Counted from the stretch's first letter, positions 44,834 through 63,211 are shown. The stretch: 64,000 bases of DNA from Candidatus Hydrothermarchaeum profundi (GCA_002011125.2 MTMF02000009.1:1704989-1768988), one strand, 5' to 3'. The notes: generated by a model not told the origin, from the letters alone. Numbers and translations: made by a program.

Positions 44834-44974
44834 ATAGAATCTATATTTTCAATTTCTTATGATAAAAAAGTACCTATTTATCTAAATTTATAGAGGAGAA
44901 AAGGGAGAGAATTGTTGCATACTGAATAAGGAGGCATAAAGTAGATTATTCCCTATACACCGATATTTCGTAGC

Positions 44975-45829: not shown

Positions 45830-45954
45830 ATGACTCCCCTAATCTTATTAGCCTCTAGTAAACTTAAAGCTTGATAACTCAGAGCCTACGATTATCACTA
45901 CTTCTTCCAAAAATTCACCACTATACATAAGATTTTATTTACTTTTAGGTGGAT

Positions 45955-46119
45955 TTATTCCATTCCAACTGGCCCGCCTTCCAAGTATTTCTCTGGGTCT
46001 TCTTCGAACTTCGCCTTACAACTTGGAGCACAGAAGTAGTACATCTTACCTTTATAATATTTGGATATTTTAGCGGTCTTTGGATCAACTTCCATACCGC
46101 ATACAGGATCTATTGCCAA
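45955..46119 (-). CDS. 54-aa YHS/TRASH metal-binding protein; not in ORF track
   Basis: TTG start after GGAGGTGA; MAIDPVCGMEVDPKTAKISKYYKGKMYYFCAPSCKAKFEEDPEKYLEGGPVGME. Confidence 0.9.
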   Translation of the reverse strand: MAIDPVCGMEVDPKTAKISKYYKGKMYYFCAPSCKAKFEEDPEKYLEGGPVGME

Positions 46120-46125
46120 AGCTTT

Positions 46126-46446
46126 TCACCTCCTTATTTCTTCAATTACTTTGATTATTTCTTCTTTGCTGGGAAACGCATCCTGCCTCTCTACTTCTTC
46201 TCCAGCTTTAAAATAAATAAGGGTAGGAGTGCTTGTAACTCTATATCTCTGGGCAACCTCTGCGTATTTCGAGATATCAAGCTTGTAGAACAACACATCC
46301 CCAGAATATTCTTCGTATACCTCCATAACTCTAGGAGTAATAGCCCTACATGGAGCACACCCGGGCACCGTGAACCAAACCACCACAGGCTTATCTGCCT
46401 TCAATACTTTCTCATCAAACTCTTGTCCTGTAATAAACTCCGTTAT
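46126..46446 (-). CDS. thioredoxin (CAPC); probable ATA start at 46446
   Basis: ITEFITGQEFDEKVLKADKPVVVWF..PGCAPC, STPT. Confidence 0.85.
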   Translation of the reverse strand: MTEFITGQEFDEKVLKADKPVVVWFTVPGCAPCRAITPRVMEVYEEYSGDVLFYKLDISKYAEVAQRYRVTSTPTLIYFKAGEEVERQDAFPSKEEIIKVIEEIRR

Positions 46447-47066
46447 ATCATCCTCCCATGAAAAAGCTCTTTGGCTACAAAAAGGGCCTCATCTAATGTC
46501 AGGTAAAGTCCTTCGCTGAAATGCTGCTTATCAGAGAACACATTCTTAGAGCACCTTTCCCTCCCAATACAGTCATCATATATTATTTCAATTAGGACCC
46601 AGAGTTCTTCGGGGGAGGAGCTACCTATTTTCCCCTCCTTGACTTCTATTTCTACCTTCTCTTTGCAATAATCGCAACATGACTTAATACCCGCATCTCT
46701 CTCTACCAAAAGAGGCACAGTTAATGAATCCAAGGCAGAGGTGGCAAAAACTCCTCTACCATCATAAAATACCTCGTACTGCGTAGACATAGCTGAAAAG
46801 GGAGAAGCAGCAGTTATTTCCGCCCCCATAAGCGAGATGAACTCAAATTCATTCAACTTACTAAAGCTTTGTATAACATCGAAAAGTCCTATGCTTAAAG
46901 AATCCATTATTTCTTCTTTTTTGGGCGGTTTACCCTCATCTGAAAACTTTTTAAGTATAAAATTAAGTACCTCTAGGTCGACCTTGTTTAGCTCTCGCAT
47001 TTTTTTGTCTAATTCAGTTACTTCCCTGAGTTTTTTAAGAGCTAATTCAGCCTTCTCGGTAGTCAC
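46443..47066 (-). CDS. MerB (organomercurial lyase)-like protein with catalytic Cys replaced by Ser
   Basis: wHTH N-terminus, A.PFS...T...V..DG, TSALD in place of xCALD, SCCDYC, LTLDEA. Confidence 0.75.
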   Translation of the reverse strand: MTTEKAELALKKLREVTELDKKMRELNKVDLEVLNFILKKFSDEGKPPKKEEIMDSLSIGLFDVIQSFSKLNEFEFISLMGAEITAASPFSAMSTQYEVFYDGRGVFATSALDSLTVPLLVERDAGIKSCCDYCKEKVEIEVKEGKIGSSSPEELWVLIEIIYDDCIGRERCSKNVFSDKQHFSEGLYLTLDEALFVAKELFHGRMI

Positions 47067-47078
47067 CTTAGTCTGCCC

Positions 47079-49484
47079 CTATTTAAAAGTTGGTGTGTAC
47101 CTCTTAAGAAGAAGAGAATTAGTAACCACTGACACAGAACTCATAGCCATGGCCGCAGCAGCAATTGCAGGGTGTAATAAAATACCCCAGAACGGGTAAA
47201 GCGCTCCAGCCGCCACCGGGATCCCTAGAGTGTTATAGAAGAACGCCCAGAAGAGGTTCTGCTTTATTTTAGTTATCGTCTTCTTGCTAAGCTTAATAGC
47301 CTTAACCACATCTCTAAGATCATCTTTTATAAGCACAATACCCCCTGCCTCTATCGCGACATCAGTCCCCGATCCAATGGCGATGCCAATATCAGCCTGA
47401 GCTAAAGCTGGAGCATCATTTATGCCATCACCTACCATGCCGACGAACCTGCCTTCCTCCTGTAACTTTTTAATCTCTCTCGCCTTATCCTCCGGTAATA
47501 CCTCTGCTAGAACCCTCTCTATTCCCAGTTGAGCGGCTATAGCTCTAGCAGTCCTCTCGTTATCCCCGGTAATCATTATAACCTCTATGCCCATTTTCTT
47601 CAACTCACTTACTGCCTCTTTAGAATACTCTTTCAGGGTATCTGCTACCGCTACAATACCTACAGCTTTATTATCAGTTGCAATTAGCATGGCTGTTTTA
47701 CCCTCGCTCTCCAGTCTACTCATCTTCTCCTCTAGATGCTCGAACTCAATGCCGTTGTCTTTAAATAGCTTCCTTGTCCCTAACAGTATACGTTTACCAT
47801 TGTAATTAGCCTCAACTCCATGTCCGGGTATAGCAAAGAATTCTTCAGGATCTTCAACCTCTAGCCCCTTATCTCTTGCTCCCCTAACTATAGCTTCGCC
47901 CAAGGGATGCTCTGAGCCTACCTCTGCGATAGCCGCTAACCTCAACACCTCGTTTTCATCAAACCCATCAATAGATATAACATCTGTAAGAGAGGGCTTT
48001 CCTTTAGTAAGTGTGCCAGTCTTATCAAGTACAATTGTATCCATCTTATATGCGTTCTCCAGCTGCTCGCCTCCTTTGATTAGAATCCCGCTCTCTGCTC
48101 CTTTGCCAGTGCCCACCATAATCGCCGTCGGAGTAGCGAGTCCCAATGCGCATGGACATGCGATAACTAAAACCGCAATCATTGTGGAGAAGGCGAATAT
48201 GAAGTACTTATCCCCAATAAAATACCATGCCAAAAATGTTAGAACCGCTATGCCTATCACCACCGGAACGAAAACCCCTGCGACTTTGTCAGCCAATCTT
48301 TGGATAGGAGCCTTAGTTCCCTGAGCCTCTTCGACCAACCTAATTATCTGCGCTAAGGCCGTATCTGATCCGACCTTTTCAGCCCTAAATTTGAAAGTAC
48401 CAAACTTATTTATCGTAGCTCCTATAACCTTATCTCCCACCTTCTTCTCTACAGGTATTGATTCACCGGTTAACATAGACTCATCAACAGTAGAATGGCC
48501 CTCCACTATGACTCCGTCTACGGGTATTTTCTCACCTGGTCTAACCACGATAATGTCCCCTACCTCCACCTCTTCAACCGGTATTTCCTTTTCAACTCCA
48601 TCTCTTATAACTCTCGCGGTCTTTGCTTGAAGTTCCATAAGCTTTTTTATAGCCTCGCTAGTACGCCCTTTCGCTATGGATTCCAGCATTCTACCCAAAA
48701 GTATGAATGCAATAATGAGGGAGGAGGTCTCATAATATACATGCCCTGGAAATATTCCCGGAAAGAAAGTTACACCAACGCTATAAAAATAAGCAGCCGA
48801 GGTACCCATAGCTATTAAAACATTCATGTCAGCGATCCTATTTCTAAGAGCGATGTAAGAACCCTTATAAAACTGATATCCGGCTATAAACTGAACTGGA
48901 GTAGCTAAAAGAAATTGTATAAAGGGATTTCGGAGTAAGGGGATACTTATTCCGATATAGCTTCCTACGCTCCCTATAAGTATAGGTATTGAGAGTGATA
49001 TCGCTAGAGCAAAGCTTCGCTTTTGTCTACTTATCTCTTCTTCTCTAGCAATCTTCTCAACATCCTCCTCTAAAACCTTAAACCCTCTCTTCTCTAAAGC
49101 TCTTCTAACTATCGTAAAATCTAGGGTAGGTAAGAACTCGACCATGATACTTTGAGCACTTAGATTAGACACAGCCTTTACGACTCCCTCAACACCCATT
49201 GCAGCTTCTTCTATTTTAGCTGCAGATGCTGAGTCTACCATTCCTTCAACCTTGAGCCGGGCTTTCCTAGTGGGTACACTATATCCCACCTCTCTGACCT
49301 TCTCTATTAGCTGTAGGAGATCTACCTTGCCTTCATCGTATTCAACAGTAGCATTTTCAGCACTAAGATTGACATTAGCCGAGCTAACCCCCTCCACCTT
49401 TGAGAGCGCTTTTTCTATAGTTTGAACGCATGTTGCACAATGCATCCCAATTATTGGCAAGATTACCTTTTTCATTTCCATCAC
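47079..49484 (-). CDS. copA: Cu(I)-exporting P1B-1 ATPase
   Basis: [34 protein letters not shown] and MAMSS. Confidence 0.95.
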
Positions 49485-49632: not shown

Positions 49633-50220
49633 ATGCATCTTGACATGATAGATCTAGAAATAATAAGAATCCTACAATCTAACGCCCGAACCCCTGTCCT
49701 CGAGATCTCTAAGAAGCTTGGACTAAGCAGACCTACTATTAAATCAAGAATCGATAAACTCAGAGAGGAGGGAGTAATTAAAAAATTTACAATTGTAATA
49801 GACCGCGACGCTGTAGTTAAGAACATTCTCCTACTCCTTAGGATGAAGATAGATGACAATAGAATACTAGAATCACTTAAAGACGAGGAAGAGATAATAG
49901 AGATATACGAAACGATGAACGAGAAGAATATAGTATGCAAAGCTGTTGTCAGGGACATCGACGAGCTTAGAGAATTCATGGATAAACTTAACAAGATGGG
50001 GGTTAAAGAAGTGGAGTCTTCCATTGTTCTTAAAACCCTCAAGGAAGAACACGAGGCAGACATAGGGCCTGAGATAGGCATTACTGTTGAATGCGAATAC
50101 TGCGGCAAGGAGATAACAGGCACTCCATATAAGTTTAAAATATACAATAAAGAACATTATCTCTGTTGCCCAGTATGCTTGAAAAGTTATAAGAAAAAAA
50201 TGAGCTACGCAAAAAATTAA
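49633..50220 (+). CDS. copR: copper-responsive regulator (Lrp/AsnC HTH plus TRASH)
   Basis: Lrp HTH, C-terminal CEYC...LCCPVC; divergent from copA. Confidence 0.88.
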   Translation: MHLDMIDLEIIRILQSNARTPVLEISKKLGLSRPTIKSRIDKLREEGVIKKFTIVIDRDAVVKNILLLLRMKIDDNRILESLKDEEEIIEIYETMNEKNIVCKAVVRDIDELREFMDKLNKMGVKEVESSIVLKTLKEEHEADIGPEIGITVECEYCGKEITGTPYKFKIYNKEHYLCCPVCLKSYKKKMSYAKN

Positions 50221-51422
50221 GACTCATGCATCGTAGGCCTAGAATAATTTGACACTCTTAGCTCAGATAGCACTACTCTATTGTCCCATGTCTTTTCTAA
50301 ATTGCCTGGCTGATATACACAGTAAGGGTCTTCAGCAAGATAATCACCTGTTAGGGCATATGCCCTGGACCTACTCCCCCTACAGATATCGTTGAATTCA
50401 CATACCCTACATCGCCCCTTAAGCTTCTCAGGGTTTTGCATATCTTTCAAAATCTTGGAACTCCTGTATATTTCAACTAAGTTTCCATATTTTACATTGC
50501 CAATTCCGATAGGTAAGAAGCTGCTAGGGAACACCTCTCCCCTATTTGAAACGAAAATACCCTTCCCATAGCTCTTATCTTTATGCTTAACAGCTTCATT
50601 CTCTCTAGCATTTGAGGTAGGAAAATAACTTTCCCTCAGCCTTTTTTTCAGGTATCTATAAAGCTTACCATGTTTAATTATCCCTTCATCAACTTCTCCC
50701 TCCTCAATCTTTCTTCTCAGTACTGCTACTCTCCTATAAGGCTCGCTCCCTGCTATCGCGTTTATGGGGATATTCGAGACTTTCATAGCGTCGTATATAA
50801 AGTTGAAAACATCTTCATATTCCTGAGGAGTAAGGGCGTATTCTTCCTTAGCTCTCCCAGTAGGTATCAGCATATATAGATACCATCCAACCGCACCCAA
50901 CTTTTCACTTAAAGACAATATCTCCGGCAATTCCTTAGCATTAAATTTAGACACCGTAGTCATAAGCCGAAATGGTAACTTGATCTCTCGCATATATTTG
51001 ACGGCTTTTACCATAATGTTAAAGGTACCCTTTACCCCTCTGAAAGAGTCATGTAACTCTGCGTTAGGGCCGTCGATACTCATCGCCACTACTTCTACAC
51101 CTGAGTCCTTTAACCTCCTTAAGTTTTCCCGGTGCAAGAGAGGGGTCGTACTTGGAGCAATGGTAACTCTGACTCCTAGGTCTCTGGCATATCTAATGAT
51201 CTTAAAAATATCACTACGTAAAAGGGCATTCCCCCCTGTGATCCTCAAAATTGGGTATTCCCTGCCGAATTCCACCATTTGATCTACTAGCCGATATGCC
51301 TCGGTAGTAGTAAGTTCATCCCTATCTGGGTTCTTTTTTGCCGATGCTTTGCAGTGCTTACACGCTAACCCACAGGCTATAGTGGATTCCCACATTATAG
51401 ATACAGGATTTAAGATTTTCAT
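50217..51422 (-). CDS. radical SAM/SPASM protein, AhbD/NirJ-like
   Basis: WESTIACGLACKHC, TGG, LKGRCRVCEF..ICRGSRSRAYA..GD....DPYC. Confidence 0.85.
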   Translation of the reverse strand: MKILNPVSIMWESTIACGLACKHCKASAKKNPDRDELTTTEAYRLVDQMVEFGREYPILRITGGNALLRSDIFKIIRYARDLGVRVTIAPSTTPLLHRENLRRLKDSGVEVVAMSIDGPNAELHDSFRGVKGTFNIMVKAVKYMREIKLPFRLMTTVSKFNAKELPEILSLSEKLGAVGWYLYMLIPTGRAKEEYALTPQEYEDVFNFIYDAMKVSNIPINAIAGSEPYRRVAVLRRKIEEGEVDEGIIKHGKLYRYLKKRLRESYFPTSNARENEAVKHKDKSYGKGIFVSNRGEVFPSSFLPIGIGNVKYGNLVEIYRSSKILKDMQNPEKLKGRCRVCEFNDICRGSRSRAYALTGDYLAEDPYCVYQPGNLEKTWDNRVVLSELRVSNYSRPTMHES

Positions 51423-53066: not shown

Positions 53067-54428
53067 ATGCACTATAATACAGGGAGTAATCCACGAGTAA
53101 CCTTCTGTGATATAGATTCCAATTGGAACCTAGCAATAGACCCAGATACAATGTTCTGGGCCTTAATTTCAAAAAACAAAGATCTAGACGTAGTTCTCAG
53201 TGACGAAGTATTTCCTATGTACGAGAAATACCGAGAAGAACTCGCTAATGAAATGAATAAGTTCAGATTCGAAACCAACCTAAGTGCGGTATATGTTAAC
53301 CCAACCGACAGATGCAATGCAAACTGCACTTACTGCTACCTCCCTAAGAACCATAAGGAAAGAGGCCTTCAGATGAATGGCGAGCAACTTCGAGAAACTA
53401 TGACCAGAATTGAAGAACATTTCAATGAGAACAGGCTTAATGGGAGAAAACCAGTAATAGTATTTCACGGAAGCGAACCATTATTAGTTAAGGACCTCCT
53501 AGAGCAGACGATAGAAGAATTTCGAGATACATTCCACTTCGGCATCCAGAGCAATGCATTAGAGCTGGAGGAAGACGACACAGAATTCATCAGGAGATAC
53601 GGAATAAACATTGGAATATCCCTTGATTCTCATATCCAAGAGATAAACGACTCAGTTCGCAGAGTGGCAGGAAATAGCGGAACCTATGAGAAAGCGGTGA
53701 AAGCAATAGACATGCTAGAAGGGTATGAAGGTCTGAATGTCGTTACAACTATCACAAATCGTAACGTAAAACATCTCCCCGGCCTAGTCGAGTTTCTTTA
53801 TAATAAAAAGGTACCAGCTATACTTATGAATCCTGTCAGGGGCACTCAGAAGTCCGCAAGACAGCTTCGCCCAGAATCAAAAGATTTAACAAAATATTTC
53901 ATCGCTGCAGTAGAAAAGGCATGCGAGCTGTCAAAGAAGGATGGGAGGCAGATAATTATAGGAGACTTCGCTAATATCCTATTAGGAATAGTAGCGCCCC
54001 TCGGCAGAAGATTGATGTGTGATATCACGCCCTGTGGAGGGGGGCGATGTTTCTTTGCAATAACCGCTGATGGACGTATGTTCCCTTGTGGAGAGTTTAT
54101 AGATATGACGGAGTTCTACGCAGGAAATATCTTCAAAACCCCTATATCAGAGGCAATGGAATCAAAAGCTTTTAAGAATGTGAGGTCAAGAATCGTAGAG
54201 AAGATAGAATACTGCAGTACCTGCGCTTTTAGGAATATATGTGGCGCTCCATGTCCCGCAGAAGTTTACTCCGAGAAGGGAGATCTAAATCAGAGATCTC
54301 CTTACTGTGAATTCTATGAAGAACTCATTAGGTATGCGTTTAAAGTGATAGCCGAGGATAAGCTAAAGTATCACTTGAGAGAAGAAGCGCTGAATAGCCT
54401 AGAATACAAATATAGTCTCATAGCATAA
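53067..54428 (+). CDS. cbpB: peptide-modifying radical SAM/SPASM enzyme CbpB
   Basis: IDPDTMFWAL, NPTDRCNANCTYCY, FHGSEPL, LMCDITPCGGGRCF, C..CAFRNICGAPCPAE. Confidence 0.85.
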   Translation: MHYNTGSNPRVTFCDIDSNWNLAIDPDTMFWALISKNKDLDVVLSDEVFPMYEKYREELANEMNKFRFETNLSAVYVNPTDRCNANCTYCYLPKNHKERGLQMNGEQLRETMTRIEEHFNENRLNGRKPVIVFHGSEPLLVKDLLEQTIEEFRDTFHFGIQSNALELEEDDTEFIRRYGINIGISLDSHIQEINDSVRRVAGNSGTYEKAVKAIDMLEGYEGLNVVTTITNRNVKHLPGLVEFLYNKKVPAILMNPVRGTQKSARQLRPESKDLTKYFIAAVEKACELSKKDGRQIIIGDFANILLGIVAPLGRRLMCDITPCGGGRCFFAITADGRMFPCGEFIDMTEFYAGNIFKTPISEAMESKAFKNVRSRIVEKIEYCSTCAFRNICGAPCPAEVYSEKGDLNQRSPYCEFYEELIRYAFKVIAEDKLKYHLREEALNSLEYKYSLIA

Positions 54429-54526
54429 TACCTGTTTGCTAATCTCTGCACTCCTCAGGGAAAACGAAATATTTATATAACAGCACCCAGGCTAATCAAC
54501 ACTATCTAGCGGATGAGGTGATATGC

Positions 54527-54865
54527 TTGGCAAAATATCTTAAAGTAGGCGGCAAGAAACTTGAACTCGACGAAGACGGTTTCTTAGTGGACTGGGAACA
54601 GTGGGATGAAGAGGTTGCAAAGGCTTTCGCTAAGCAAGATGGAATTGAGTTGACTGACGAGCACTGGGAAATTATCCATTTCCTTAGAAAGTACTATCTA
54701 GAGTATAAGATAGCGCCTCCAATTAGAATGCTTGTAAAGGAGGTCAAAAAAGCACTAGGCCCCGAGAAAGGTAATCTAAAATATGTTTATAAGCTTTTCC
54801 CTGGCGGCCCTGCAAAGATGGCTTGCAAATATGCTGGACTACCAAAGCCAACTGGCTGCGTATAA
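54527..54865 (+). CDS. dsrC: DsrC/TusE sulfur carrier with both C-terminal Cys
   Basis: DEDGFL, LTDEHW, FPGGPAKMACKYAGLPKPTGCV; own TATA at about 54472; TTG start after GAGGTGA. Confidence 0.92.
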   Translation: MAKYLKVGGKKLELDEDGFLVDWEQWDEEVAKAFAKQDGIELTDEHWEIIHFLRKYYLEYKIAPPIRMLVKEVKKALGPEKGNLKYVYKLFPGGPAKMACKYAGLPKPTGCV

Positions 54866-54991
54866 AGAATAATATAACTACTTTTTTTTATCTATTTAGA
54901 AATCTATCAAATTAAGCCTAAAAAAATAATTGATTAGGCATATTTTTTATAAGAAAATTATTTATTATCTTTCAATTAGCTTATTTATTAA

Positions 54992-55444
54992 ATGAAAGTT
55001 AAAAAAATTTTGTTGCCATTAGAATCCTCTTTAAAAGCTTCACCAATAGGCCCTGCCTTCGAAATTGCTAAAAAAGGTAATACCGAAATTATAGCTCTCG
55101 ATATAGTGCCAATAAATTCCTCGGCCGGCTGGAATTATAAAGAAATTTTAAAACGTATGAAAAATAAAAAGTCAGAGCCCTTGTTAAATGAGCTTGAAGA
55201 ATGGGGAAAAAGGATAGGTGTAAAAGTAAAGAAGGTTATAGAGTCCGGGTCACCAACTAAAAAGATAATTGAAGTAGCTAAAAGAGAAAAAGTAGATCTT
55301 ATCATAATAGGCGAAACGAAGGGATTCCTTGGAGTAAATCCACATATGTATTTAATAATTAAAAAAGCCTGCTGCCCAGTATTAGTAATTGGAGAAAACA
55401 GCCGCAGAGTACCATGCAAAGCATGGAATATTGAATTCCCATAG
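54992..55444 (+). CDS. universal stress protein
   Basis: KKILLP, GSP..KI...A....VDLIIIG, CPVLVI. Confidence 0.85.
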   Translation: MKVKKILLPLESSLKASPIGPAFEIAKKGNTEIIALDIVPINSSAGWNYKEILKRMKNKKSEPLLNELEEWGKRIGVKVKKVIESGSPTKKIIEVAKREKVDLIIIGETKGFLGVNPHMYLIIKKACCPVLVIGENSRRVPCKAWNIEFP

Positions 55445-55500
55445 ATTAAATGCGGCTACTGCATCTACCTCTGAGAATGCAGCGGTAGACTTTCATAGTT

Positions 55501-55866
55501 TTAAAATTCAGTATCCGCTGAATTAGACTTTGCTTTAACTCTCTCTACTACCCTTAAAGCTCTATCTACGCAATTCTTTATTACCTTAGCGGGAGCAGGT
55601 CCTGGTACGCCTCTAACAGGTATACCCTTATAGAATATGATAATAGTAGGAGGCACATATACCCTCTTTTGTAGAACAAGTTCCCTCTCAGAATCATAAT
55701 CTACATAGACAGATTTTATTCTCCCTTCATATTCTGAGGAAACCTCCTTTAACAACTCCGCAACCTCAACGCAAGAAGGGCTCCAATCTGCCTTAAAAAA
55801 GACAAGTACAGGTATCTCAGATTCGGTTACCTCTTTATCCCAGTTTTCAAAATCAACTTTCCTCAT
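55501..55866 (-). CDS. thioredoxin-like protein, monothiol WSPSC
   Basis: NWDKEV..SEIPVLVFFKADWSPSC, VPPT; ATG 55866 preferred. Confidence 0.8.
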   Translation of the reverse strand: MRKVDFENWDKEVTESEIPVLVFFKADWSPSCVEVAELLKEVSSEYEGRIKSVYVDYDSERELVLQKRVYVPPTIIIFYKGIPVRGVPGPAPAKVIKNCVDRALRVVERVKAKSNSADTEF

Positions 55867-55873
55867 AGTAGTC

Positions 55874-56191
55874 TCAAAACACTGGCTGCTGTTTAGCTCC
55901 AACATAGGCATGACACTTATTACAGTAATCAGCTACCTCATGGCAATTTGCACATATTTCGATATCTACTTTCTTTGTTTCAGGCTCGAATAATTCAGTC
56001 ACCTTAGATGCAGTTTTTACGGTTCCTGTTGTAATACTCCCATGATTTGCCCTATACCAATCTAGCCCTCGCTCAGTATGGTACTTAGGGGGATTAACAT
56101 CCTCAGGCTTAGGCGGTTTCTCTATTATCCCCACACAGCCGCTGACAAGAAAGAAACAGATTATCATAATCAATAGCCTCATCTTCTCCAC
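55874..56191 (-). CDS. small diheme c-type cytochrome lipoprotein, DsrJ-like C-terminus
   Basis: lipobox-like VSGC; CANCH..YCNKCHAY. Confidence 0.75.
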   Translation of the reverse strand: MEKMRLLIMIICFFLVSGCVGIIEKPPKPEDVNPPKYHTERGLDWYRANHGSITTGTVKTASKVTELFEPETKKVDIEICANCHEVADYCNKCHAYVGAKQQPVF

Positions 56192-56192
56192 C

Positions 56193-57608
56193 TCACTTCA
56201 TCACAATCGCCTTCCCAACCAAGTCATGGACCCCGCCTACTTGGACTTCAAGCTTATAGTGCGACATAACTAAGGGAAGCTGGGCTTTATCTATAGCGCA
56301 TGGTGCAGCTAGATAGTTAGCTCCTGTGCTCCTCACTGCTTCAGCTCTGGGCATACCTCCCTTCATCCTGAGCTCCATTATCTCTTCAGTAAGAAGACCT
56401 CCACCGCCGCCGCAACAGAAAGTTTTCTCCTTAATTGTATTATCTGGCATCTCTCTAAAATCATTAACACAGCTTTTTATTATGTACCTCGGTTCTGAGA
56501 TCAGATTTCCTGCCCTTGCCATATTACATGGATCATGCAAAGTTACGATAACATCATCATTCTGACTTTTATCAAGCTTTATCTTGCCTTTTCTAATCTT
56601 ATCAGCAGTGTATTCCAGTATGTTACAATATTTAAAGGGCAAAGGTCCATTCATTTTCTCCATAAACTGCCTCGCTGCTCTCCAGGCATGCCCACACTCT
56701 CCGATTATAACCAGCTTTGCGTCTATCTCCTTTGCCTTGTCAACTATTCTCTTATTTATCCACTCGATGTCGATATAAGATTGAAAAAGACCGAAGTTTG
56801 CTGCCTCACTAGCATATGTGCTCATTGTCCAATCTACCCCCAATGCGTTCATTACTTTCGCCACCCCTATCATAGTATCAGTATTCGTAAAAAGGTCGGC
56901 AGAGGGAGGAACGTATAGGATATCCGCCTTCTCTTTATCCACTGGGATCTCGATATCTATATCTTCCATCTCCTTGACATCTTCTATCAAGAATTCACAG
57001 GTGCTTTTAAATGCTTTATCTGGAATGCCAAGGTTATTGCCAATATCATACACTTTCGCTATGACCTCTGTGATATACTTGGTCGCAAGCCCTAGGTTAG
57101 CTAGTATCTCTCTACCCGCCATAGTTATTTCTGCCTGATCTATACCATAGGGACAAAAAACAGAACAACGCCTGCATTCACTACACTGATAAAAATATTT
57201 GTACCATTCATTTTCGATTATATCATTTGTGAGATCCGACGCTCCCACCAAAGAGCCAAATATCCTGCCGCTGATAGTAAAATATCTCTTGTATACTTTT
57301 CTTAGGAGCTCAGCTCTACCTACGGGCGTATTCTTGGGATCCCCGGTGCCGAGATAATAATGGCATTGCTTAATGCATGCCCCACATCTGACACAAATAT
57401 CTAAATAAAGTTGCAGTGATTTCCGGGTTTTCCTAAGTTCATCAAGCTTCCTTATAGCTACTTCAGGCCTGTGCTCAGGAGGCAACTCGGGGTAGGGTAT
57501 TTTTACTTTGAGCCACTTTATATCCTTCTCCTTTGCTCTGTGCATAATGTAGTTTTCCGCTGCTGCTGGTTGAAATTTTACGTCGTAAATGTTTTTCATT
57601 TCAGCCAT
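56193..57608 (-). CDS. dsrK: DsrK/HmeD Fe-S subunit
   Basis: CVRCGAC..QC, CSECRRCSVFCPYGID, GECGH, HDPCN, CCGGGGG, CAID. Confidence 0.9.
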   Translation of the reverse strand: MAEMKNIYDVKFQPAAAENYIMHRAKEKDIKWLKVKIPYPELPPEHRPEVAIRKLDELRKTRKSLQLYLDICVRCGACIKQCHYYLGTGDPKNTPVGRAELLRKVYKRYFTISGRIFGSLVGASDLTNDIIENEWYKYFYQCSECRRCSVFCPYGIDQAEITMAGREILANLGLATKYITEVIAKVYDIGNNLGIPDKAFKSTCEFLIEDVKEMEDIDIEIPVDKEKADILYVPPSADLFTNTDTMIGVAKVMNALGVDWTMSTYASEAANFGLFQSYIDIEWINKRIVDKAKEIDAKLVIIGECGHAWRAARQFMEKMNGPLPFKYCNILEYTADKIRKGKIKLDKSQNDDVIVTLHDPCNMARAGNLISEPRYIIKSCVNDFREMPDNTIKEKTFCCGGGGGLLTEEIMELRMKGGMPRAEAVRSTGANYLAAPCAIDKAQLPLVMSHYKLEVQVGGVHDLVGKAIVMK

Positions 57609-57614
57609 GAGTTC

Positions 57615-58340
57615 TCACTCCTCTACCTCAATACTATGGGAGCCCTTCTCGAAGTAGTGAATCCTAGTAGGGCTGAAGAACACGCCTCCAAGATGCATTA
57701 TCTTGCTGAAGGGTAAAATCATGAGAAGCAACTGCACTAAAAAGAAGTGAGTGAGAAACCAGAAACTATCAGGTATAACGGAAGGATTCGGCTGCAAGGT
57801 TATTAGTCCCATTATCATTGTCTTCACATCAAATACGTAGACTCTGGAAAAAAACTTTAGAATTAGCCCAGTGCTTGCTATGGAAATCAGGAGTAGGAGG
57901 GCAAAGTAATCTGCGAAGTTAGATATGAATCTGAGATCAGCAAAAACTAGACGCCGTAATAATAGGTATAAGAGAGGAACTAGGATTAGTAGGCCAGCGT
58001 ATATCCCCACTGTTTGAAAAGCCATGACCCATGATGGAACAGGATACAAAAAATATCTTAAATGTCGCAATAGGATTAGTAAGAAGCATATATGGAATAT
58101 CCATGACCCCGCCCACAGAATATAATTGCCAGGAAACCTCAAAAGGCTTCTAAACAATGCAACATCTAATAAAACTCTCGCTATGGATTTTCCAGGCGAA
58201 TCCTGCCCAGGGAAAACAGGGATCTTTACCGGGGAGCGTATCGTCGCCCATGCGGCAAGCCTGTAAATAAATCCTACTGTGAATATGGTAATAGTGATAT
58301 AAGGAAGATAAACCCCAATAAAACTAGCAATAACACCCAT
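57615..58340 (-). CDS. dsrM: DsrM/HmeC cytochrome b subunit (NarI family)
   Basis: FRSL, IFH...RHLRYF..PVP, THFFL, PFSKIMH.GG.FFSPTR. Confidence 0.9.
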   Translation of the reverse strand: MGVIASFIGVYLPYITITIFTVGFIYRLAAWATIRSPVKIPVFPGQDSPGKSIARVLLDVALFRSLLRFPGNYILWAGSWIFHICFLLILLRHLRYFLYPVPSWVMAFQTVGIYAGLLILVPLLYLLLRRLVFADLRFISNFADYFALLLLISIASTGLILKFFSRVYVFDVKTMIMGLITLQPNPSVIPDSFWFLTHFFLVQLLLMILPFSKIMHLGGVFFSPTRIHYFEKGSHSIEVEE

Positions 58341-58419
58341 TAAATCACCTCCTCAGTTCCCATATATGGTTATGAATATAAAATATTTTCATTTACAAGT
58401 TGGTGTGGGGCTTTGTGCA

Positions 58420-58593
58420 CTACCACCAGCAGATGACTTTTTCGTAGTCGAAGATCTTATCGATAAGAGCATCGTAATCAGGAACGCCCTCATATAGCTT
58501 GAATACTTCCACTTCATTTCCCTGTGAATGCACATGTATAATCTTCTTCACAGTTTCATCGGCAGGTGATTTCAGGATTTCTAATACCTTCAT
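58420..58593 (-). CDS. 57-aa DsrH/TusB-like protein; not in ORF track
   Basis: ATG after GAGGTGA; MKVLEILKSPADETVKKIIHVHSQGNEVEVFKLYEGVPDYDALIDKIFDYEKVICWW. Confidence 0.8.
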   Translation of the reverse strand: MKVLEILKSPADETVKKIIHVHSQGNEVEVFKLYEGVPDYDALIDKIFDYEKVICWW

Positions 58594-58602
58594 TTCTTCA
58601 CC

Positions 58603-58893
58603 TCAAAAAGGTACGATAAAATCGTTTTCAAGCATTTTCTTAGCCATGTCCTCTAGCGAGATTATCTCCGTAAACTCGTCAGCGTTCTTCTCATTGTTGG
58701 AGTAAACCTTTCCATCAGAATCAACTATCCACTCTAAATTCTCCAAGATATACGGATTCTTTTTTAGCTCCACATTTATGATAAAGAGGTTCACTGTATG
58801 CCCTTCCAAGAGTAATCCAAGCGCAGACCTAGTGAATTCGCTCTGCCTATATCTGTCAGAGTCCCTTAAAATAAATGCTATTTTTCTCTCCAT
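58603..58893 (-). CDS. DsrF-like protein (DsrE fold, no Cys)
   Basis: KIAFILR, R.ALGL....H.V.LF, ISLEDMA..M.END.IVPF. Confidence 0.7.
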   Translation of the reverse strand: MERKIAFILRDSDRYRQSEFTRSALGLLLEGHTVNLFIINVELKKNPYILENLEWIVDSDGKVYSNNEKNADEFTEIISLEDMAKKMLENDFIVPF

Positions 58894-58894
58894 C

Positions 58895-59206
58895 TTAAAA
58901 CACCACGTATCTATCTACTTCCGCGGCTATTTCCGCGTTATTATCCTGATTACCATGGACTACACCATCAATAGTGGGCTTATAGGTGTTATGCAAGTCA
59001 AAGCCTTGATAGGTTTTATTGCATAGGCTTATCTCAGCGCCGGATTTGAGCAACTCCTCAAACTCAGGATCCTGAGTAAGAAATACAGAATTTGCGGTGA
59101 AAAAAATCTTCACTTCTTTACCTTTAGCCACCGCTGCCTTAGTTAACCCAATAACATGATTCAGATGTTTATCTGAACTCACAAGTATCCCAAGCTTTTC
59201 TCCTAT
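58895..59206 (-). CDS. DsrE-like sulfurtransferase; probable ATA start at 59206
   Basis: KLGILV, A...GKEV.IFFT..SV, SLCNKT (conserved Cys), DRYVVF. Confidence 0.8.
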   Translation of the reverse strand: MGEKLGILVSSDKHLNHVIGLTKAAVAKGKEVKIFFTANSVFLTQDPEFEELLKSGAEISLCNKTYQGFDLHNTYKPTIDGVVHGNQDNNAEIAAEVDRYVVF

Positions 59207-59223
59207 CTAGACCACCTCCTATT

Positions 59224-59841
59224 TTATTCGCCTTTCCTTTCAAGATACGCATACGCTAGGATGAAAATTAAGGCTTGAAAAGCGCCTATATACACGCCCT
59301 TTATCTTAAAGAGATATACTGCGAGAGGATTTGCAAGAGGAAACTCCCCTAACCAAATTAGTCCATATGGTGAACCAAGCAAAGAAGACTCTACACCTCC
59401 TGCTAGCTTTGCTGCTAACCATGGTATCGTATAAAGTTGCGCTCCAATTGCTACTCCGACTAATATCATAAAGGCGGTAATCAGATAATTAAGGCTTCCT
59501 TCGCCTATTCTTGCGAAACTGCTTATTACGCAACCCCCCGCAATAGCCATACCTATGCCGAAGATAACGCCTCCAACAACACTATACCAGCCAGCAGGCA
59601 TATTAGTGGGTCTTAATACTCCAACCGTCATAAAGAACGTATAGAAGAAACTTGTGGTACCAAGTATCATAAGAGTCATCTTTAGATTTCTATCTATCCT
59701 AAAAAGGATGTAGTCCCGTATTGCACCAGTCATGCAGAACCTGGATCTCTGAACTAGAAAGCCTAGTATAAACCCGAAGAATGCCGCAGAGATATAATGG
59801 GCCGGATTTGACATTATCTCCGCTATTGCACTCATTTTCAC
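59224..59841 (-). CDS. YeeE/YedE-family sulfur-compound transporter, half 2
   Basis: QRSRFCM, FGIGMAIAGGC, R.GEG. Confidence 0.85.
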   Translation of the reverse strand: MKMSAIAEIMSNPAHYISAAFFGFILGFLVQRSRFCMTGAIRDYILFRIDRNLKMTLMILGTTSFFYTFFMTVGVLRPTNMPAGWYSVVGGVIFGIGMAIAGGCVISSFARIGEGSLNYLITAFMILVGVAIGAQLYTIPWLAAKLAGGVESSLLGSPYGLIWLGEFPLANPLAVYLFKIKGVYIGAFQALIFILAYAYLERKGE

Positions 59842-60359
59842 AGCCCCATTTTTTTCTCGTAATATTTAGCCCCTATATATGTGCCTATAATTAATCCAAT
59901 CCCGGCGAGATAGGCTCCCAGAGCTATCTGGGGGAGGGAGTTTAAAAAAGTTCCCACGTTACAAGTCGTAATAAAAACGATTCCAATTCCCATTAATATC
60001 CCCCCCACTATTGACTCTGGAAGGCTGGACTTATCTACTCTTATTCCAAACTCCTCTGACAATAAAGCTGCCACAAAGCTTCCTAACACAAAGAAGAGGA
60101 GAGTGACCGCTACATCCAAATTTCCAGCAAAAATACTCCAGTGTGGATTTCTCAATACAAATTTTTCACCGATAAACGTAGTTAGAATAGTCTGATCAAC
60201 CCATCTAAGAGCGCTAGCAAAGGCCCATGCCTTTCCATAGCCTAATGTTATGCCTGTTTCGGTTTTGAAGGGTATAACTAAAAAAACTAGGACAATGCTG
60301 ATGAGTACGCCTCCAACCTTGTAGTCAAGTGGTTCCTTAAATAATGAGCGTAATCCCAT
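59838..60359 (-). CDS. YeeE/YedE-family sulfur-compound transporter, half 1
   Basis: GIT, LGSF.AAL, GG.LMG.G.....CNVG. Confidence 0.8.
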   Translation of the reverse strand: MGLRSLFKEPLDYKVGGVLISIVLVFLVIPFKTETGITLGYGKAWAFASALRWVDQTILTTFIGEKFVLRNPHWSIFAGNLDVAVTLLFFVLGSFVAALLSEEFGIRVDKSSLPESIVGGILMGIGIVFITTCNVGTFLNSLPQIALGAYLAGIGLIIGTYIGAKYYEKKMGL

Positions 60360-60576
60360 CCTAGTCCTCCTCCATTAAATTACGAGTGTAAGGAATGTGT
60401 GTATTTAAGGTTTTCTATTAGTCTTGGTTGTGTAAATTTTTTAATATCCAACCTAAATAATTAATATTCTACTTTAATTAGAAAAAATTTAAATAATCCA
60501 AAAAAAAATAAAATTATACCTTCTAAATTAAGGCTTGTATAAATTATGTACATGAAAAAAAGTAGGTGTGTAAATT

Positions 60577-61134
60577 ATGGATGAGAAGGATTGCACCATA
60601 TACGAAATGCTAAATGAGGATGGAAGGAAAAAAATCGTAGAGATAGCAAAGGTTATTGGATTCTCGCCTCCTTCGACAAAAGAACGTGTAGAGAAGTTGA
60701 TTAAAAATAAAGATATAAAAGTTAAGGCTCTTTTAAACGTTCAAAAGAAAAAATGGAAGACCGCTGTCTGTAATATACAAGTTTCAAGCATGGAAGAAGC
60801 CCTTAAGCTAGCAGACACTTTCAAGAATTGTCCTAGAGTGATTTTCGCAACAACTATGACAGGAGCTTATAATCTTATACTAATATTAGTAGCTAAAGAT
60901 ACTGCTGTCCTTGAATCTGCTATTGAAAACGGCATCCGACCTGTAAGCTCAATAAAAAAACTGGACATCTCTATAGGAGAAGCCCCAATTTTACCGGGGT
61001 TTCTTGATATAAGAATAAACCCTGTTAGTAAAGAGCCTCCCTGCGGCGAAAAATCCTGTTCAGAGTGCTATCTCTACGAAAGGAAATGTGATGGATGTCC
61101 GGCAACAATATATTGGAAAGGCCTTAGATCTTGA
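60577..61134 (+). CDS. Lrp/AsnC regulator with Cys-rich C-terminal extension
   Basis: Lrp HTH, CPRV......G.YN, PCGEKSCSECYLYERKCDGCP. Confidence 0.85.
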   Translation: MDEKDCTIYEMLNEDGRKKIVEIAKVIGFSPPSTKERVEKLIKNKDIKVKALLNVQKKKWKTAVCNIQVSSMEEALKLADTFKNCPRVIFATTMTGAYNLILILVAKDTAVLESAIENGIRPVSSIKKLDISIGEAPILPGFLDIRINPVSKEPPCGEKSCSECYLYERKCDGCPATIYWKGLRS

Positions 61135-61194
61135 GCCAAGATAATATTTAAATAAAGATTTTTCCTAAAGTATTGAGGTAAAGGAGGATTAGCT

Positions 61195-61452
61195 ATGCCG
61201 GAGGTTGAAATTCCGAAGATTGGGAAAGTTAATGTTTCTAGAGTAGTAGACTGCACAGGACAGGTGTGCCCAAAGCCACAACTAGAAGCCAAAAAGGCGT
61301 GTAAAGAGATGGTTGAGGGAGAGATAGTGGAAATGCTTATCACTAACCCTGCCTCAATTGAGGCGGTACCTAAAATTATCACTAAGTCTGGTTGTTCTGT
61401 ATTAGGAACAATAAAAGACGGAAATACATGGAAACTGTACTTTAAGAAGTAG
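61195..61452 (+). CDS. tusA: TusA-family sulfur carrier
   Basis: VDCTGQVCPKP. Confidence 0.88.
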   Translation: MPEVEIPKIGKVNVSRVVDCTGQVCPKPQLEAKKACKEMVEGEIVEMLITNPASIEAVPKIITKSGCSVLGTIKDGNTWKLYFKK

Positions 61453-62197
61453 AAACCTCCTTCCAAATATGCTCGAAATAGTTCCTGTACAGCTTGATGC
61501 ACCCAGGGTTTCTATTATATAAAGCAAAGTAGTAGTTAGCTGGATCCTCAGACGCCAGTATAAGCTCCTTATCATCCACTATGACAAAACGAGAGTGATC
61601 ATGCTCGAAGTCCTTGATCTCTGCGTTAAGCTTTCTTAATTTTTCCTTACATTCCTCATCAAACATTCCCATGGCTTTTATTTTAACTCCTGAGTTACTG
61701 GCTTTTCTCAGAGAAGCTTCTATCTCTCTAGTTGTTATTGGCTGTATACCTACTACATATACCTCTTTCTCCGCTCTTTCTATCATCTCGATAAGTTTTT
61801 TTCTGACGTTTTCTTGTCCCCGTATAGTCCAAATCATATCTTCCATAGATTCAGGACTCTCTTTTTCTTCATAGATAGGCCCTATCTTGGAGATTAGATC
61901 TTCTACCACTTTTATCCGGATATCACATTCTCTTTTCAAAACTTTTCGCGGATCAACTGCCCTATATCTTTTAGGTCTGCCAGGTTGAGATTCGACAAAA
62001 CCCATTTCCTCTAGATTATCTAAGATATCGTACTCTCGTGAGTAGGGTATACCGGCAGATTCTCTTATTTCTTTAACGGTTGAAGGCCCTCTAGTTACTA
62101 GGGCGATATACGTTTTTGCTTCATATTCTGTTAAGTCAAAGAGCTTGAGTATATCGACCCACCGCTGATCTATACCAAATTTTTTACTCATTTTCAA
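61442..62197 (-). CDS. TrmB-family transcriptional regulator
   Basis: LTEYEAKTY.AL, IP.SR.YDIL..L, GRPKRY, PLD-like C-terminus. Confidence 0.9.
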   Translation of the reverse strand: MKMSKKFGIDQRWVDILKLFDLTEYEAKTYIALVTRGPSTVKEIRESAGIPYSREYDILDNLEEMGFVESQPGRPKRYRAVDPRKVLKRECDIRIKVVEDLISKIGPIYEEKESPESMEDMIWTIRGQENVRKKLIEMIERAEKEVYVVGIQPITTREIEASLRKASNSGVKIKAMGMFDEECKEKLRKLNAEIKDFEHDHSRFVIVDDKELILASEDPANYYFALYNRNPGCIKLYRNYFEHIWKEVSTS

Positions 62198-62259
62198 GTA
62201 AAAAATAGAAAGTTTTATATATTTAAATTTTACTTAATTTTAAGTAAATTGAGGGAGAC

Positions 62260-62499
62260 ATGATGGCGGATATTACTCCAGACGAGGTACTTGATTGTAG
62301 AAAACTTGTATGTCCTATGCCTGTTCTCAAGACCAAGAAAGCCGTGAAAGGCATGCCTGCAGGGAAGATCTTAGAGGTCCTAGCTACTGATAAAGCGGCA
62401 CCAAAAGATATTACAGCATGGGCTAAAAAAGCGGGAGTGGAAGTACTTAAAATCGAGGGAGATGAAGAGTTCAAAATATACCTCAAAAAGAGCGAATGA
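62260..62499 (+). CDS. tusA: TusA-family sulfur carrier
   Basis: LDCRKLVCPMP, ATD.AA..DI.AW. Confidence 0.9.
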   Translation: MMADITPDEVLDCRKLVCPMPVLKTKKAVKGMPAGKILEVLATDKAAPKDITAWAKKAGVEVLKIEGDEEFKIYLKKSE

Positions 62500-62723
62500 A
62501 TATGCCTTATAGTCTAGATTTAAGCCGTGCCAAGTGCCCTATGGTTGTCTACAATCTTAACAAAGAAATGAGGAAACTAAGCTCGGGAGAAGTCTTGGAA
62601 GTAGTAGTAACAGATCCTGCAGCAGAGAAGGACATTCCGGCTTGGTCAAGAACCACAGGAAATGAGATTATTGAAACTATAAAGACTGAGAATAATATAA
62701 AATTCAAGATAAGGAAAAAATAA
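62496..62723 (+). CDS. tusA: TusA-family sulfur carrier
   Basis: LDL...KCPM, TDPAAEKDIPAW..TGN. Confidence 0.88.
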   Translation: MNMPYSLDLSRAKCPMVVYNLNKEMRKLSSGEVLEVVVTDPAAEKDIPAWSRTTGNEIIETIKTENNIKFKIRKK

Positions 62724-62734
62724 GGAGGTTTAAA

Positions 62735-63211
62735 ATGGCGGAAGAAAAAAAGAAGAGGATAGCAATAATAGCATCTAAAGGAACTTTAGATATGGCTTAT
62801 CCTCCCCTAATTTTAGCTACTACGGCTCTATCTATGGATATGGAAGCAGGGATATTCTTTACTCTCTATGGTATTAACATTCTCAGGAAAGATAAGCAGG
62901 AATCCCTTAAAGTAGCTCCATTAGCAAATCCAGCGATGCCAGTTCCGGTACCAAATATAATGGGCGTGATACCTGGCATGACGGCTATGGCGACATCTAT
63001 GATGAAGGGCTGGATAAAAAAGATAAACTGGCCAACAATTCCTGAGCTACTTGAAATGTGTGTAGAGGAAGGTGCGAGGCTGATAGCCTGCTCGCCAACA
63101 ATGGAAATGCTAGACCTTAAAAAAGAAGACCTAATTGATGGCGTAGAGATAGCAGGAGCTGCCGACTTCTTAGAATTTGCATCAGAAGCAGATATAACCC
63201 TATTTATCTAA
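62735..63211 (+). CDS. DsrE2/DrsE-like sulfurtransferase
   Basis: SKGTLDMAYPP, IFFTLYG, IAC..TM, GAA.FL..A. Confidence 0.88.
   Translation: MAEEKKKRIAIIASKGTLDMAYPPLILATTALSMDMEAGIFFTLYGINILRKDKQESLKVAPLANPAMPVPVPNIMGVIPGMTAMATSMMKGWIKKINWPTIPELLEMCVEEGARLIACSPTMEMLDLKKEDLIDGVEIAGAADFLEFASEADITLFI

Follow-up and report, generated by a model that had tools for sequence, protein, structure and literature searches.

The arrangement of genes on this stretch of the Candidatus Hydrothermarchaeum profundi genome raises the question of whether a sulfur import and carrier system feeds DsrC and DsrMK on its own or as part of a pathway that depends on DsrAB. The window is the whole stretch of DNA that was analyzed, 64,000 nucleotides of GCA_002011125.2 (MTMF02000009.1:1704989-1768988). 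In the initial annotation it was read as a route of import, relay, DsrC and DsrMK, possibly bypassing DsrAB, and every gene named there was recovered in its place by means of open reading frames and Pfam/NCBIfam profiles. The in silico tests covered the gene family identities, the homology of a trio of small proteins, an invariant cysteine, the fold of the 96-aa protein, a three-chain model, the number of copies of dsrC and dsrMK in the genome and whether dsrAB is encoded there.

Nine genes lie in one run on the minus strand: two yeeE halves, the trio, dsrM, dsrK, a cytochrome gene and a thioredoxin-like gene, with intergenic gaps of -4, 17, 1, 9, 79, 6, 1 and 7 nt from the first YeeE half to the thioredoxin-like gene. 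The grouping is not a matter of chance, since the three genes of the trio lie side by side in 19 of the 20 loci surveyed in relatives and in all 80 of the bacterial ones. The run is presumably co-transcribed. On reading the sequence, the 79 nt that separate the relay genes from dsrM (58341..58419, minus strand) were found to contain the AT-rich TTTATATT about 35 nt 5' of the dsrM ATG, followed by GGAGGTGA. An internal archaeal promoter is conceivable here and, because the AT-rich gap could carry dsrM's own promoter, the run of nine may be split into two transcription units.

The trio consists of three syntenic small genes (58420-59206, minus strand) separated by 1 and 9 nt. The first encodes a DsrE-like subunit (58895..59206), the second a 96-aa protein without cysteine (58603..58893), the equivalent of Chp1 or DsrF type II, and the third a 57-aa protein (58420..58593), the equivalent of Chp2 or DsrH type II. 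Membership of the canonical, type I DsrE, DsrF and DsrH families was not found, as the DsrE-like protein matched PF02635 with an E value of 0.006, below the cut-off, and the Pfam and NCBIfam searches returned no family for the 96-aa or 57-aa ORF. HMMs built from the archaeal copies were then informative; they matched ORFs resembling the 96-aa, the 57-aa and the DsrE-like protein (95 aa as called), in that order, in all 80 Desulfobacterota loci, among them those of Desulfosarcina widdelii, Desulfospira joergensenii and Desulfocicer vacuolatum. The worst of the best E values over the 80 loci were 4.2e-16, 8.5e-13 and 1.1e-09, respectively. The gene order is F-H-E in these bacteria and E-F-H here. 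A TusA match lay within 600 nt upstream of the trio in 56 of the 80 loci and a YeeE match within 1500 nt of it in 60, and a profile search with the 96-aa protein gave 90 cluster representatives at E≤1e-3. Profile-to-profile comparison among the three subunits revealed no significant similarity.

These searches bear out the earlier suggestion of a relationship between the 96-aa and 57-aa proteins and the hypothetical proteins of the YTD cluster, which was renamed DsrEFH type II in 2026 (PMC13293266, PMC13047784). The characterized reference trio is that of Electronema aureum GS (LDFHOB_04580-04590); the homology of the present trio rests on the Desulfobacterota loci instead. The DsrE-like, 96-aa and 57-aa proteins also share with DsrEFH type II their make-up, a DsrE-like protein of about 100 aa with one invariant cysteine, a cysteine-free protein of about 96 aa and one of about 57 aa encoded by adjacent genes, and their setting, with yeeE alongside, tusA nearby and dsrAB, dsrC and dsrMK encoded by the same genome. 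The strict YTD order (yedE-tusA-dsrE-chp-chp) was not observed, as there is no tusA in 58420-60359. The tusA genes lie outside the operon, in three copies 2-4 kb away on the opposite strand.

One cysteine of the DsrE-like subunit was invariant in all 60 aligned sequences. It is the candidate sulfur-binding residue, Cys62 (Cys54 in the short ORF), and probably the equivalent of E. aureum Cys67. The homologues are 101-106 aa long with an N-terminal (E)KLGILV, and the gene yields 95 aa from the GTG at 59182 and 103 aa from an ATA at 59206. This ATA directly follows an in-frame TAG (59209-59207), and AGGAGGTG lies 6 nt upstream. The most likely start, as far as can be read from the DNA, is the non-canonical ATA, 8 codons earlier than the one called. 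The level of expression of the DsrE-like protein is uncertain because of the in-frame TAG and the non-canonical start.

Structure models were used to examine the relationship of the trio to the type I complexes. The 96-aa protein was modeled with a pLDDT of 97.3. All of the 8 best PDB matches of this model were chains of the DsrE/DsrF/TusD/YchN family, among them 2hy5_A (E 2.8e-3, TMq 0.70) and 2hy5_B (E 8.6e-3, TMq 0.71); the protein is thus modeled as a DsrE/DsrF fold. When the model of the 57-aa protein alone (pLDDT 96.2) was compared with the PDB using Foldseek, the best E value was 0.15 and DsrH was not in the top 50. The earlier label "dsrH-like" needs correcting to that extent, as the 57-aa protein by itself showed no significant match to DsrH. 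The three-chain model scored 0.94 in three runs, compared to 0.74 for the best control, with contacts in 100% agreement among runs and a partner pLDDT of 95. The 57-aa chain contacts both other chains, and residues 3 and 5 of the DsrE-like N-terminal extension fall in the modeled interface. The model passed the mark for complexes, which had been reached by 58 of 80 complexes of solved structure and by 2 of 110 mismatched pairs. This supports a predicted 1:1:1 heterotrimer, although the pass may reflect likeness to known complexes, since structures of DsrEFH and TusBCD have already been solved. [quoted passage not shown] It differs in that its sequence similarity to type I is negligible (DsrE-like profile against 2hy5_A, E 0.65; no DsrF match for the 96-aa profile) and in that its third subunit has only some half the length of DsrH.

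The transporter upstream of the trio is encoded in two pieces. The 173-aa half (59838..60359, minus strand; PF04143 (Sulf_transp) 1.7e-16) aligns with profile positions 170-310 of 310, the C-terminal portion of the one-piece protein, and its gene shares 4 nt with the next one. The 205-aa half (59224..59841, minus strand; PF04143 5.3e-23, with matches to the TsuA and YedE models) corresponds to the N-terminal part, positions 1-116 of 310. The Sulf_transp domain thus spans both halves, identifying a YeeE/YedE transporter. The split, with the C-terminal-like half first, sets this locus apart from DsrEFH type II/YTD loci; halves matched as separate stretches were also found in three relatives (L033, L035 and L046). 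Divergent to the yeeE operon is a gene for an Lrp/AsnC-type regulator with a Cys-rich C-terminal tail (60577..61134, plus strand; PF13404, PF01037), a 59% identical homologue of which lies beside a DsrMK-like pair in another relative (L165). Beyond it are tusA copy 1 with a Cys-Pro-Lys-Pro motif (61195..61452, plus strand; PF01206 3e-19), a TrmB-family regulator gene (61442..62197, minus strand; PF01978 4.8e-25), tusA copy 2 with a Cys-Pro-Met-Pro motif (62260..62499, plus strand; PF01206 4.6e-25), tusA copy 3 (62496..62723, plus strand; PF01206 8.7e-20) and dsrE2 (62735..63211, plus strand; PF13686 6.2e-48; NF047629 181 bits, below the cut-off of 210). A 61% identical copy of the TrmB regulator adjoins tusA-dsrE2 in L035.

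The dsrC gene (54518..54865, plus strand) encodes 115 aa and was identified by PF04358 (1.8e-46) and TIGR03342 (166 bits, cut-off 53.5). The protein ends in PTGCV and has Cys103 and Cys114 in the pattern C-x10-C-V; the penultimate cysteine, and with it the two-cysteine arm, distinguishes it from TusE or RspA. A universal stress protein (USP) family gene follows (54992..55444, plus strand; PF00582 4.1e-12). On the minus strand, dsrM (57615..58340) encodes a NarI-type membrane cytochrome b of 241 aa (PF02665 1e-15; NF038037 155 bits, below the cut-off of 300) with four histidines conserved in 6 of 6 aligned sequences. It adjoins dsrK (56193..57608), whose 471-aa product is the catalytic subunit with Fe-S and CCG domains (NF045796 523 bits, cut-off 400; PF13183, PF02754), the combination that defines DsrMK. 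The pair resembles that of the Archaeoglobus fulgidus DsrMKJOP in that DsrK exceeds the equivalog cut-off, DsrM is of the NarI type with four conserved histidines and a two-cysteine DsrC is encoded nearby. The DsrMKJOP arrangement itself is absent, as no dsrJ, dsrO or dsrP was found within the window.

In place of dsrJOP, dsrK is followed by a gene for a small dihaem c-type cytochrome of 105 aa (55874..56191, minus strand), with two CxxCH motifs and a lipoprotein-type signal (LVSGC), and by one for a thioredoxin-fold protein (55501..55866, minus strand; PF00085 2.1e-14). The cytochrome matched the DsrJ model only at E=0.094. In relatives the LSGC and both CxxCH motifs are kept in a protein of 178 aa with two extra haem motifs, and the genome encodes a CcmF/NrfE-type haem lyase. 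The thioredoxin-fold protein has W-S-P-S-C where W-C-x-x-C is expected, and its S-x-x-C was kept in 5 of 6 sequences, the remaining one having no cysteine. Its ORF extends to 55911; the most likely start is Met16, at 55866, since the alignment with 5 relatives begins at the equivalent of this residue. The thioredoxin-like gene follows dsrK in the window and in 9 relatives' loci. Both products, the lipoprotein cytochrome c and the thioredoxin-like protein with its Ser-x-x-Cys, probably serve DsrMK as accessories specific to this lineage.

The possibility was considered that the operon is a self-contained sulfur reductase, in which the relay would load zero-valent sulfur on DsrC and DsrMK would reduce the DsrC persulfide or trisulfide to sulfide with electrons from quinol, independently of DsrAB. 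The relay genes adjoin dsrMK rather than dsrAB, here and in five related genomes, a DsrM/DsrK-like pair was found beside the trio in two bacterial loci, and DsrMK-type complexes are reported to free sulfide from DsrC-bound sulfur in vitro, the A. fulgidus DsrMKJOP being a menadiol:DsrC-trisulfide oxidoreductase (PMC10861901). The initial annotation was right that dsrAB and dsrOP are missing from the window; both are present elsewhere on the same contig. The genome search that it had proposed revealed two dsrAB pairs, one with both subunits above the curated cut-offs, together with sat and aprA, all outside the window. Genes for DsrO (217 bits, cut-off 200), a DsrP-like protein (206 bits, cut-off 350) and a trihaem cytochrome lie about 150 kb away (G000:C9:1607175-1609872). 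The window copies of dsrC, dsrM and the close dsrK are the only ones in the genome. The sole tblastn match of dsrC at E≤1e-3 was itself, dsrM likewise matched only itself, and the dsrK paralogues are at most 26% identical. Given two dsrAB pairs and a single set of dsrC and dsrMK, these genes are best seen as ordinary partners of DsrAB, which is the simpler role. Moreover, conversion of the DsrC persulfide to the trisulfide is an oxidation, which would be needed before any reduction. A bypass of DsrAB is not supported by these results, and a self-contained reductase is regarded as unlikely.

An alternative explanation is that YeeE, TusA and the DsrE-like protein import thiosulfate for cysteine, molybdenum cofactor or tRNA thiolation, with dsrMK a neighbor by chance. 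E. coli YeeE and a TusA-like partner mediate assimilatory thiosulfate uptake (cited in PMC13293266), and tRNA thiolation involves TusA and TusBCD (PDB 2d1p title). Linkage of the trio to dsrMK, the lack of which in relatives would have counted against the initial annotation, does recur there. The dsrMK genes lie within 2.5 kb of the trio in 5 of 19 relatives' loci, five genomes of one genus in which the trio is divergent to dsrMK, but the two do not adjoin in the other 14 loci, several of which are on short contigs. This separation speaks for a thiolation relay; it also indicates that fusion of the trio with dsrMK is not needed for function, as most relatives keep them apart. Against such a relay, members of the phylum show various arrangements in which the trio is accompanied by dsrMK, by dsrC or by yeeE/tusA/dsrE2, and the gaps between the relay genes and dsrMK are tight here (at most 79 nt). 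In addition, PMC13293266 reports DsrEFH type II together with reductive dsrAB in 73.9% of 985 genomes. An assimilatory or thiolation role is therefore considered very improbable.

The route of import, relay, DsrC and DsrMK agrees with the model published for DsrEFH type II, which runs from an importer through TusA, DsrE and DsrC to DsrMK, and persulfide transfer from TusA to DsrE Cys67 and on to DsrC has been demonstrated in vitro (PMC13293266). One sentence and a figure of the same paper place archaeal dsrEFH type II with dsrMK or qmoAB, and the present locus is alike in being archaeal with a trio adjoining dsrMK. The gene set and its archaeal arrangement are thus already in two 2026 papers (PMC13293266, PMC13047784), so that the initial call was correct and its claim to novelty was pre-empted. 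The Results and Discussion text of PMC13293266 does not mention a single run in which yeeE, the cytochrome gene and the thioredoxin-like gene share one strand. Relative to DsrEFH type II/YTD loci, this one differs in having dsrMK, the cytochrome c and the thioredoxin-like gene directly after the trio and in beginning its dsrE-like gene at a non-canonical codon. Two small additions are made here, this start and the conserved genes for a lipoprotein cytochrome c and a Ser-x-x-Cys thioredoxin-like protein after dsrK.

Taken as a DsrAB-dependent system, the locus would work as follows. The two-piece YeeE channel would import a sulfur compound, thiosulfate or sulfane sulfur, to the cytoplasm, where the TusA proteins would accept the sulfur in persulfide form. 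From them it would move to the invariant cysteine of the DsrE subunit in the DsrEFH type II trimer (103, 96 and 57 aa), which would hand it on to DsrC. The membrane-bound DsrMK would connect DsrC-bound sulfur with the quinone pool by electron exchange, and DsrAB, encoded elsewhere, would interconvert the DsrC trisulfide and sulfite. The order of the sulfur transfers is suggested by analogy with the in vitro work on cable-bacterium proteins. As regards identity and wiring, the locus is probably the DsrC-centered section of a dissimilatory sulfur pathway that depends on DsrAB, with a system for importing and carrying sulfur physically linked to it. The direction of flow can be proposed more tentatively: the same DsrC and DsrMK would serve sulfite reduction in the opposite direction, and the reading preferred here, though with slightly less than even confidence, is that the relay supplies DsrC with sulfane sulfur taken up from outside, which would then be oxidized to sulfite, in sulfur oxidation or in the oxidative half of disproportionation.

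All the genes that the initial annotation had listed for this region of the window (approximately 54518-63211) were found to be present. A run on the minus strand comprises two YeeE/YedE halves of 173 and 205 aa, three small ORFs of 95, 96 and 57 aa, dsrM, dsrK, the gene of a 105-aa protein that carries two CxxCH motifs as well as a signal of lipoprotein type and, last, the gene of a thioredoxin-fold protein. The intergenic gaps, in order, are -4, 17, 1, 9, 79, 6, 1 and 7 nt, the 79-nt spacer (58341-58419) lying between the relay genes and dsrM. The flanks carry DsrC, with a two-cysteine C-terminal arm (Cys103 and Cys114), a USP, an Lrp/AsnC-type and a TrmB-type regulator, three tusA genes and dsrE2. 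DsrK scored 523 bits against the NCBIfam DsrK equivalog (cut-off 400). The NarI fold is present in DsrM, which scored 155 bits with the DsrM model, under the cut-off of 300, and four of its histidines are kept in all six aligned sequences. Just upstream of dsrC, a CbpB-type peptide-modifying radical SAM/SPASM enzyme is encoded at 53067-54428 (TIGR04163, 545 bits, cut-off 375), and farther upstream a TIGR04053-family radical SAM/SPASM protein related to the haem b synthase AhbD is encoded at 50217-51422 (405 bits, cut-off 395). Upstream genes at 42734-49484 encode an AbiEii-type nucleotidyltransferase toxin, a MerB-like protein and a heavy-metal P-type ATPase, and nothing evident connects them with the sulfur genes.

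The 95-aa ORF has homologues of 101-106 aa whose N-terminus is (E)KLGILV. In the window this stretch is encoded straight after an in-frame TAG (59209-59207), which, within 59182-59215, is preceded by a short GTG-GTC and followed by an ATA at 59206. The ATA occupies the position of the ATG in a close homologue, and AGGAGGTG is found six bases upstream of it; an ORF starting from the GTG at 59182 would be without the first strand. Judging from the nucleotide sequence and these homologues, the DsrE-like protein (58895-59206) probably has 103 residues and a non-canonical ATA start. The interval 58400-59400 has the same letters in contigs of two DNA runs, which are possibly its source. The start of the thioredoxin-like gene is probably Met16, matching its relatives.

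The 96-aa protein (58603-58893) had no match in Pfam and NCBIfam family searches. When this protein and six of its close homologues were combined in a profile, 90 cluster representatives out of 1.84 billion matched at E<=1e-3, and those that are named belong to Nitrospirota and Desulfohalobiaceae. Genomes were scanned, one per species, with a six-sequence bacterial sub-alignment as the query, which samples a single bacterial subgroup. The scan returned 190 relatives, and the best 80 loci of the 190 were analyzed; by their titles all are from Desulfobacterota, with Desulfosarcina widdelii, Desulfospira joergensenii, Desulfocicer vacuolatum and Desulfothermus okinawensis among the species. Three HMMs, made solely from archaeal copies of the 96-aa, 57-aa (58420-58593) and DsrE-like proteins, matched three consecutive ORFs in every one of these best 80 of 190 loci, the worst best E-values being 4.2e-16, 8.5e-13 and 1.1e-09. 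Under strict distance rules, a TusA match lies no more than 600 nt upstream of the trio in 56 of the 80 loci, and in 60 a one-piece YeeE is at most 1500 nt away from it. [quoted passage not shown] The kinship of the small archaeal proteins with the YTD hypothetical proteins, proposed in the initial annotation, was thus borne out by the HMM matches. The gene order differs, being F-H-E in the Desulfobacterota loci (best 80 of 190) and E-F-H in the window.

The DsrE-like and two Chp proteins have been reported as a DsrEFH-like complex from structure prediction (PMC13047784, 2026), and the same complex, by prediction and biochemistry, was named DsrEFH type II (PMC13293266, 2026). The DsrE-like subunit has one cysteine that is kept in all 60 aligned sequences, archaeal as well as bacterial. 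The 96-aa protein was modeled with a pLDDT of 97.3, and the top eight PDB matches of the model were all chains of the DsrE/DsrF/TusD/YchN family, DsrE and DsrF of 2HY5 among them. When the three chains were modeled together, a score of 0.94 was obtained in each of three runs, compared with 0.74 for the best control; among solved complexes this mark was attained by 58 of 80, and among mismatched pairs by 2 of 110. Contact agreement between the runs was 100% and the partner pLDDT was 95. In the predicted complex, the 57-aa chain contacts both of the others, and residues 3 and 5 of the N-terminus as extended to the ATA are among the residues contacted. The success of the three-chain model may stem from likeness to the solved DsrEFH and TusBCD structures. 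Profile-profile comparison was not significant for the DsrE-like versus the 96-aa protein (E 0.039, probability 1.3%) or for the 96-aa versus the 57-aa protein (E 0.11). Against PDB sequences, the DsrE-like profile gave marginal matches only (3pnx, 0.33; 2hy5_A, 0.65) and the 96-aa profile gave no match to Dsr/Tus families. Likeness of the trio to canonical DsrEFH at the sequence level is negligible, in line with the 2026 papers.

It is possible that DsrC loaded by the relay is reduced directly by DsrMK and that DsrAB is bypassed, as had been suggested at first for this locus. No specific support for this route was obtained, and the genome (2.19 Mb, 19 contigs, 97.65% complete) has two dsrAB pairs. 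Both subunits of the first exceed the curated cut-offs; in the second, located on the contig of the window at 125387-128435, dsrA is under the cut-off with 333 bits and dsrB is over it with 389 bits, and behind the pair a c-type cytochrome of 238 aa is encoded that has a SoxX-like domain. When the genome was searched by tblastn with the window proteins, dsrC, dsrM, the trio and yeeE were each found once only, and the nearest DsrK paralogues were at most 26% identical; the window therefore holds the organism's only DsrC and only DsrMK. Importer, relay, DsrC and DsrMK all lie within 9 kb. To account for these sole copies, no bypass of DsrAB is required.

Other sulfur genes are dispersed along the same contig. 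The interval 1015594-1022014 contains aprA (721 bits, cut-off 557), a short gene resembling aprB and sat (597 aa), with two small sulfite/nitrite-reductase-like genes and one like FrhB/FpoF directly after them. No QmoC over the cut-off was present in the genome, and this set may serve assimilation or an F420-linked route instead of the classical dissimilatory activation of sulfate. A search of the genome for mcrA found none. Apart from dsrMK, approximately 150 kb from the window, a dsrJOP-like set (1607175-1609872) encodes a membrane-anchored cytochrome (242 aa, three CxxCH motifs), DsrO (217 bits, cut-off 200) and an NrfD protein that resembles DsrP (206 bits, cut-off 350). A second membrane module, approximately 90 kb downstream of the window (1856332-1859560), contains a NarI-like protein, an HdrD-like protein (CCG domains; 26% identity with DsrK), a CMD/AhpD-like protein, a DsrE of 122 aa (PF02635, 7.4e-19) and a fourth TusA. 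Near 1576566-1578554 there is a third pair of NarI-like and HdrD-like proteins.

The set searched contained 38 species-level genomes of the phylum; the 96-aa family was matched in 20 of them and DsrK, at E<=1e-60, in 24. Of the 20 loci fetched from relatives, 19 have a contiguous trio, and on one contig the trio is present twice. In five genomes of one genus it is divergent to dsrM-dsrK-trx-cytochrome. In one relative the order is TrmB-tusA-dsrE2-tusA-yeeE (two halves)-trio, with no dsrMK, and another trio adjoins dsrC; further relatives have tusA or split yeeE near the trio. The recurrence of split yeeE near the trio establishes the split as a lineage trait and not a frameshift. On the contig of one relative (G017:C166:1-15670), two complete trios lie 8 kb apart, each behind split yeeE genes, with tusA copies between them. 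In two of the 80 bacterial loci, on Deltaproteobacteria MAG contigs, dsrE2-tusA and a DsrM-like/DsrK-like pair lie approximately 1.7 kb upstream of the trio, so that the linkage is not limited to archaea. In another relative (G003:C1:26178-30398), the Cys-tailed Lrp-type regulator of the window has a homologue of 59% identity that adjoins a DsrM-like/DsrK-like pair, which hints that this type of regulator accompanies DsrMK-type modules.

Behind dsrK, the window and nine loci of relatives have both a thioredoxin-like and a cytochrome gene, and two more loci have the cytochrome gene alone. The cytochrome has four haem motifs in relatives (178 aa) versus two in the window, and its lipobox is conserved. 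Five of six sequences of the thioredoxin-like protein have the motif as W-S-P-x-C, and one is without the Cys. As to the window cytochrome as a replacement for DsrJ, the DsrJ model gave E 0.094 on it and 6.7e-5 on another ORF elsewhere in the genome, and the idea is weakened by the trihaem cytochrome-DsrO-DsrP-like cluster elsewhere. A literature search for dsrMK with a thioredoxin and a dihaem cytochrome found no such module, which is no proof of absence.

DsrEFH type II was reported in 985 genomes, archaea making up 7% of subtype 2, and the archaeal genes were reported to occur with dsrMK or qmoAB (PMC13293266). The same source proposes the complex as a marker of organisms with reductive-type DsrAB that are also able to oxidize or disproportionate sulfur; its authors favor oxidation of sulfane sulfur by reductive-type DsrAB run in reverse and doubt a specific tie to disproportionation. 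No description of the same-strand fusion with split yeeE, of the cytochrome/thioredoxin-like pair after dsrK or of the E-F-H gene order was found in the text of PMC13293266 or by literature search. Apart from its uses as a test case, the locus confirms rather than extends the published comparative genomics.

By homology to proteins assayed in vitro (PMC13293266), sulfur would pass from TusA to the DsrE cysteine and from there to DsrC, and DsrMK-type complexes are described as linking DsrC-bound sulfur to the quinone pool (PMC10861901). The window locus offers a compact archaeal set for testing the marker proposal outside bacteria, and could reveal whether DsrMK acts on relay-loaded DsrC. A joint reading, which we consider improbable, is that DsrMK in this phylum is a four-part machine, in which an outward lipoprotein multihaem cytochrome c leads to electron partners outside the cell and, in the cytoplasm, a Ser-x-x-Cys thioredoxin-like subunit acts on DsrC-bound sulfur, and that its co-transcription with the YeeE/DsrEFH type II relay provides a self-contained turnover of imported zero-valent sulfur on DsrC without DsrAB. 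If this were true, the four-part DsrMK module would represent a minimal, possibly ancestral form of sulfur respiration or oxidation.
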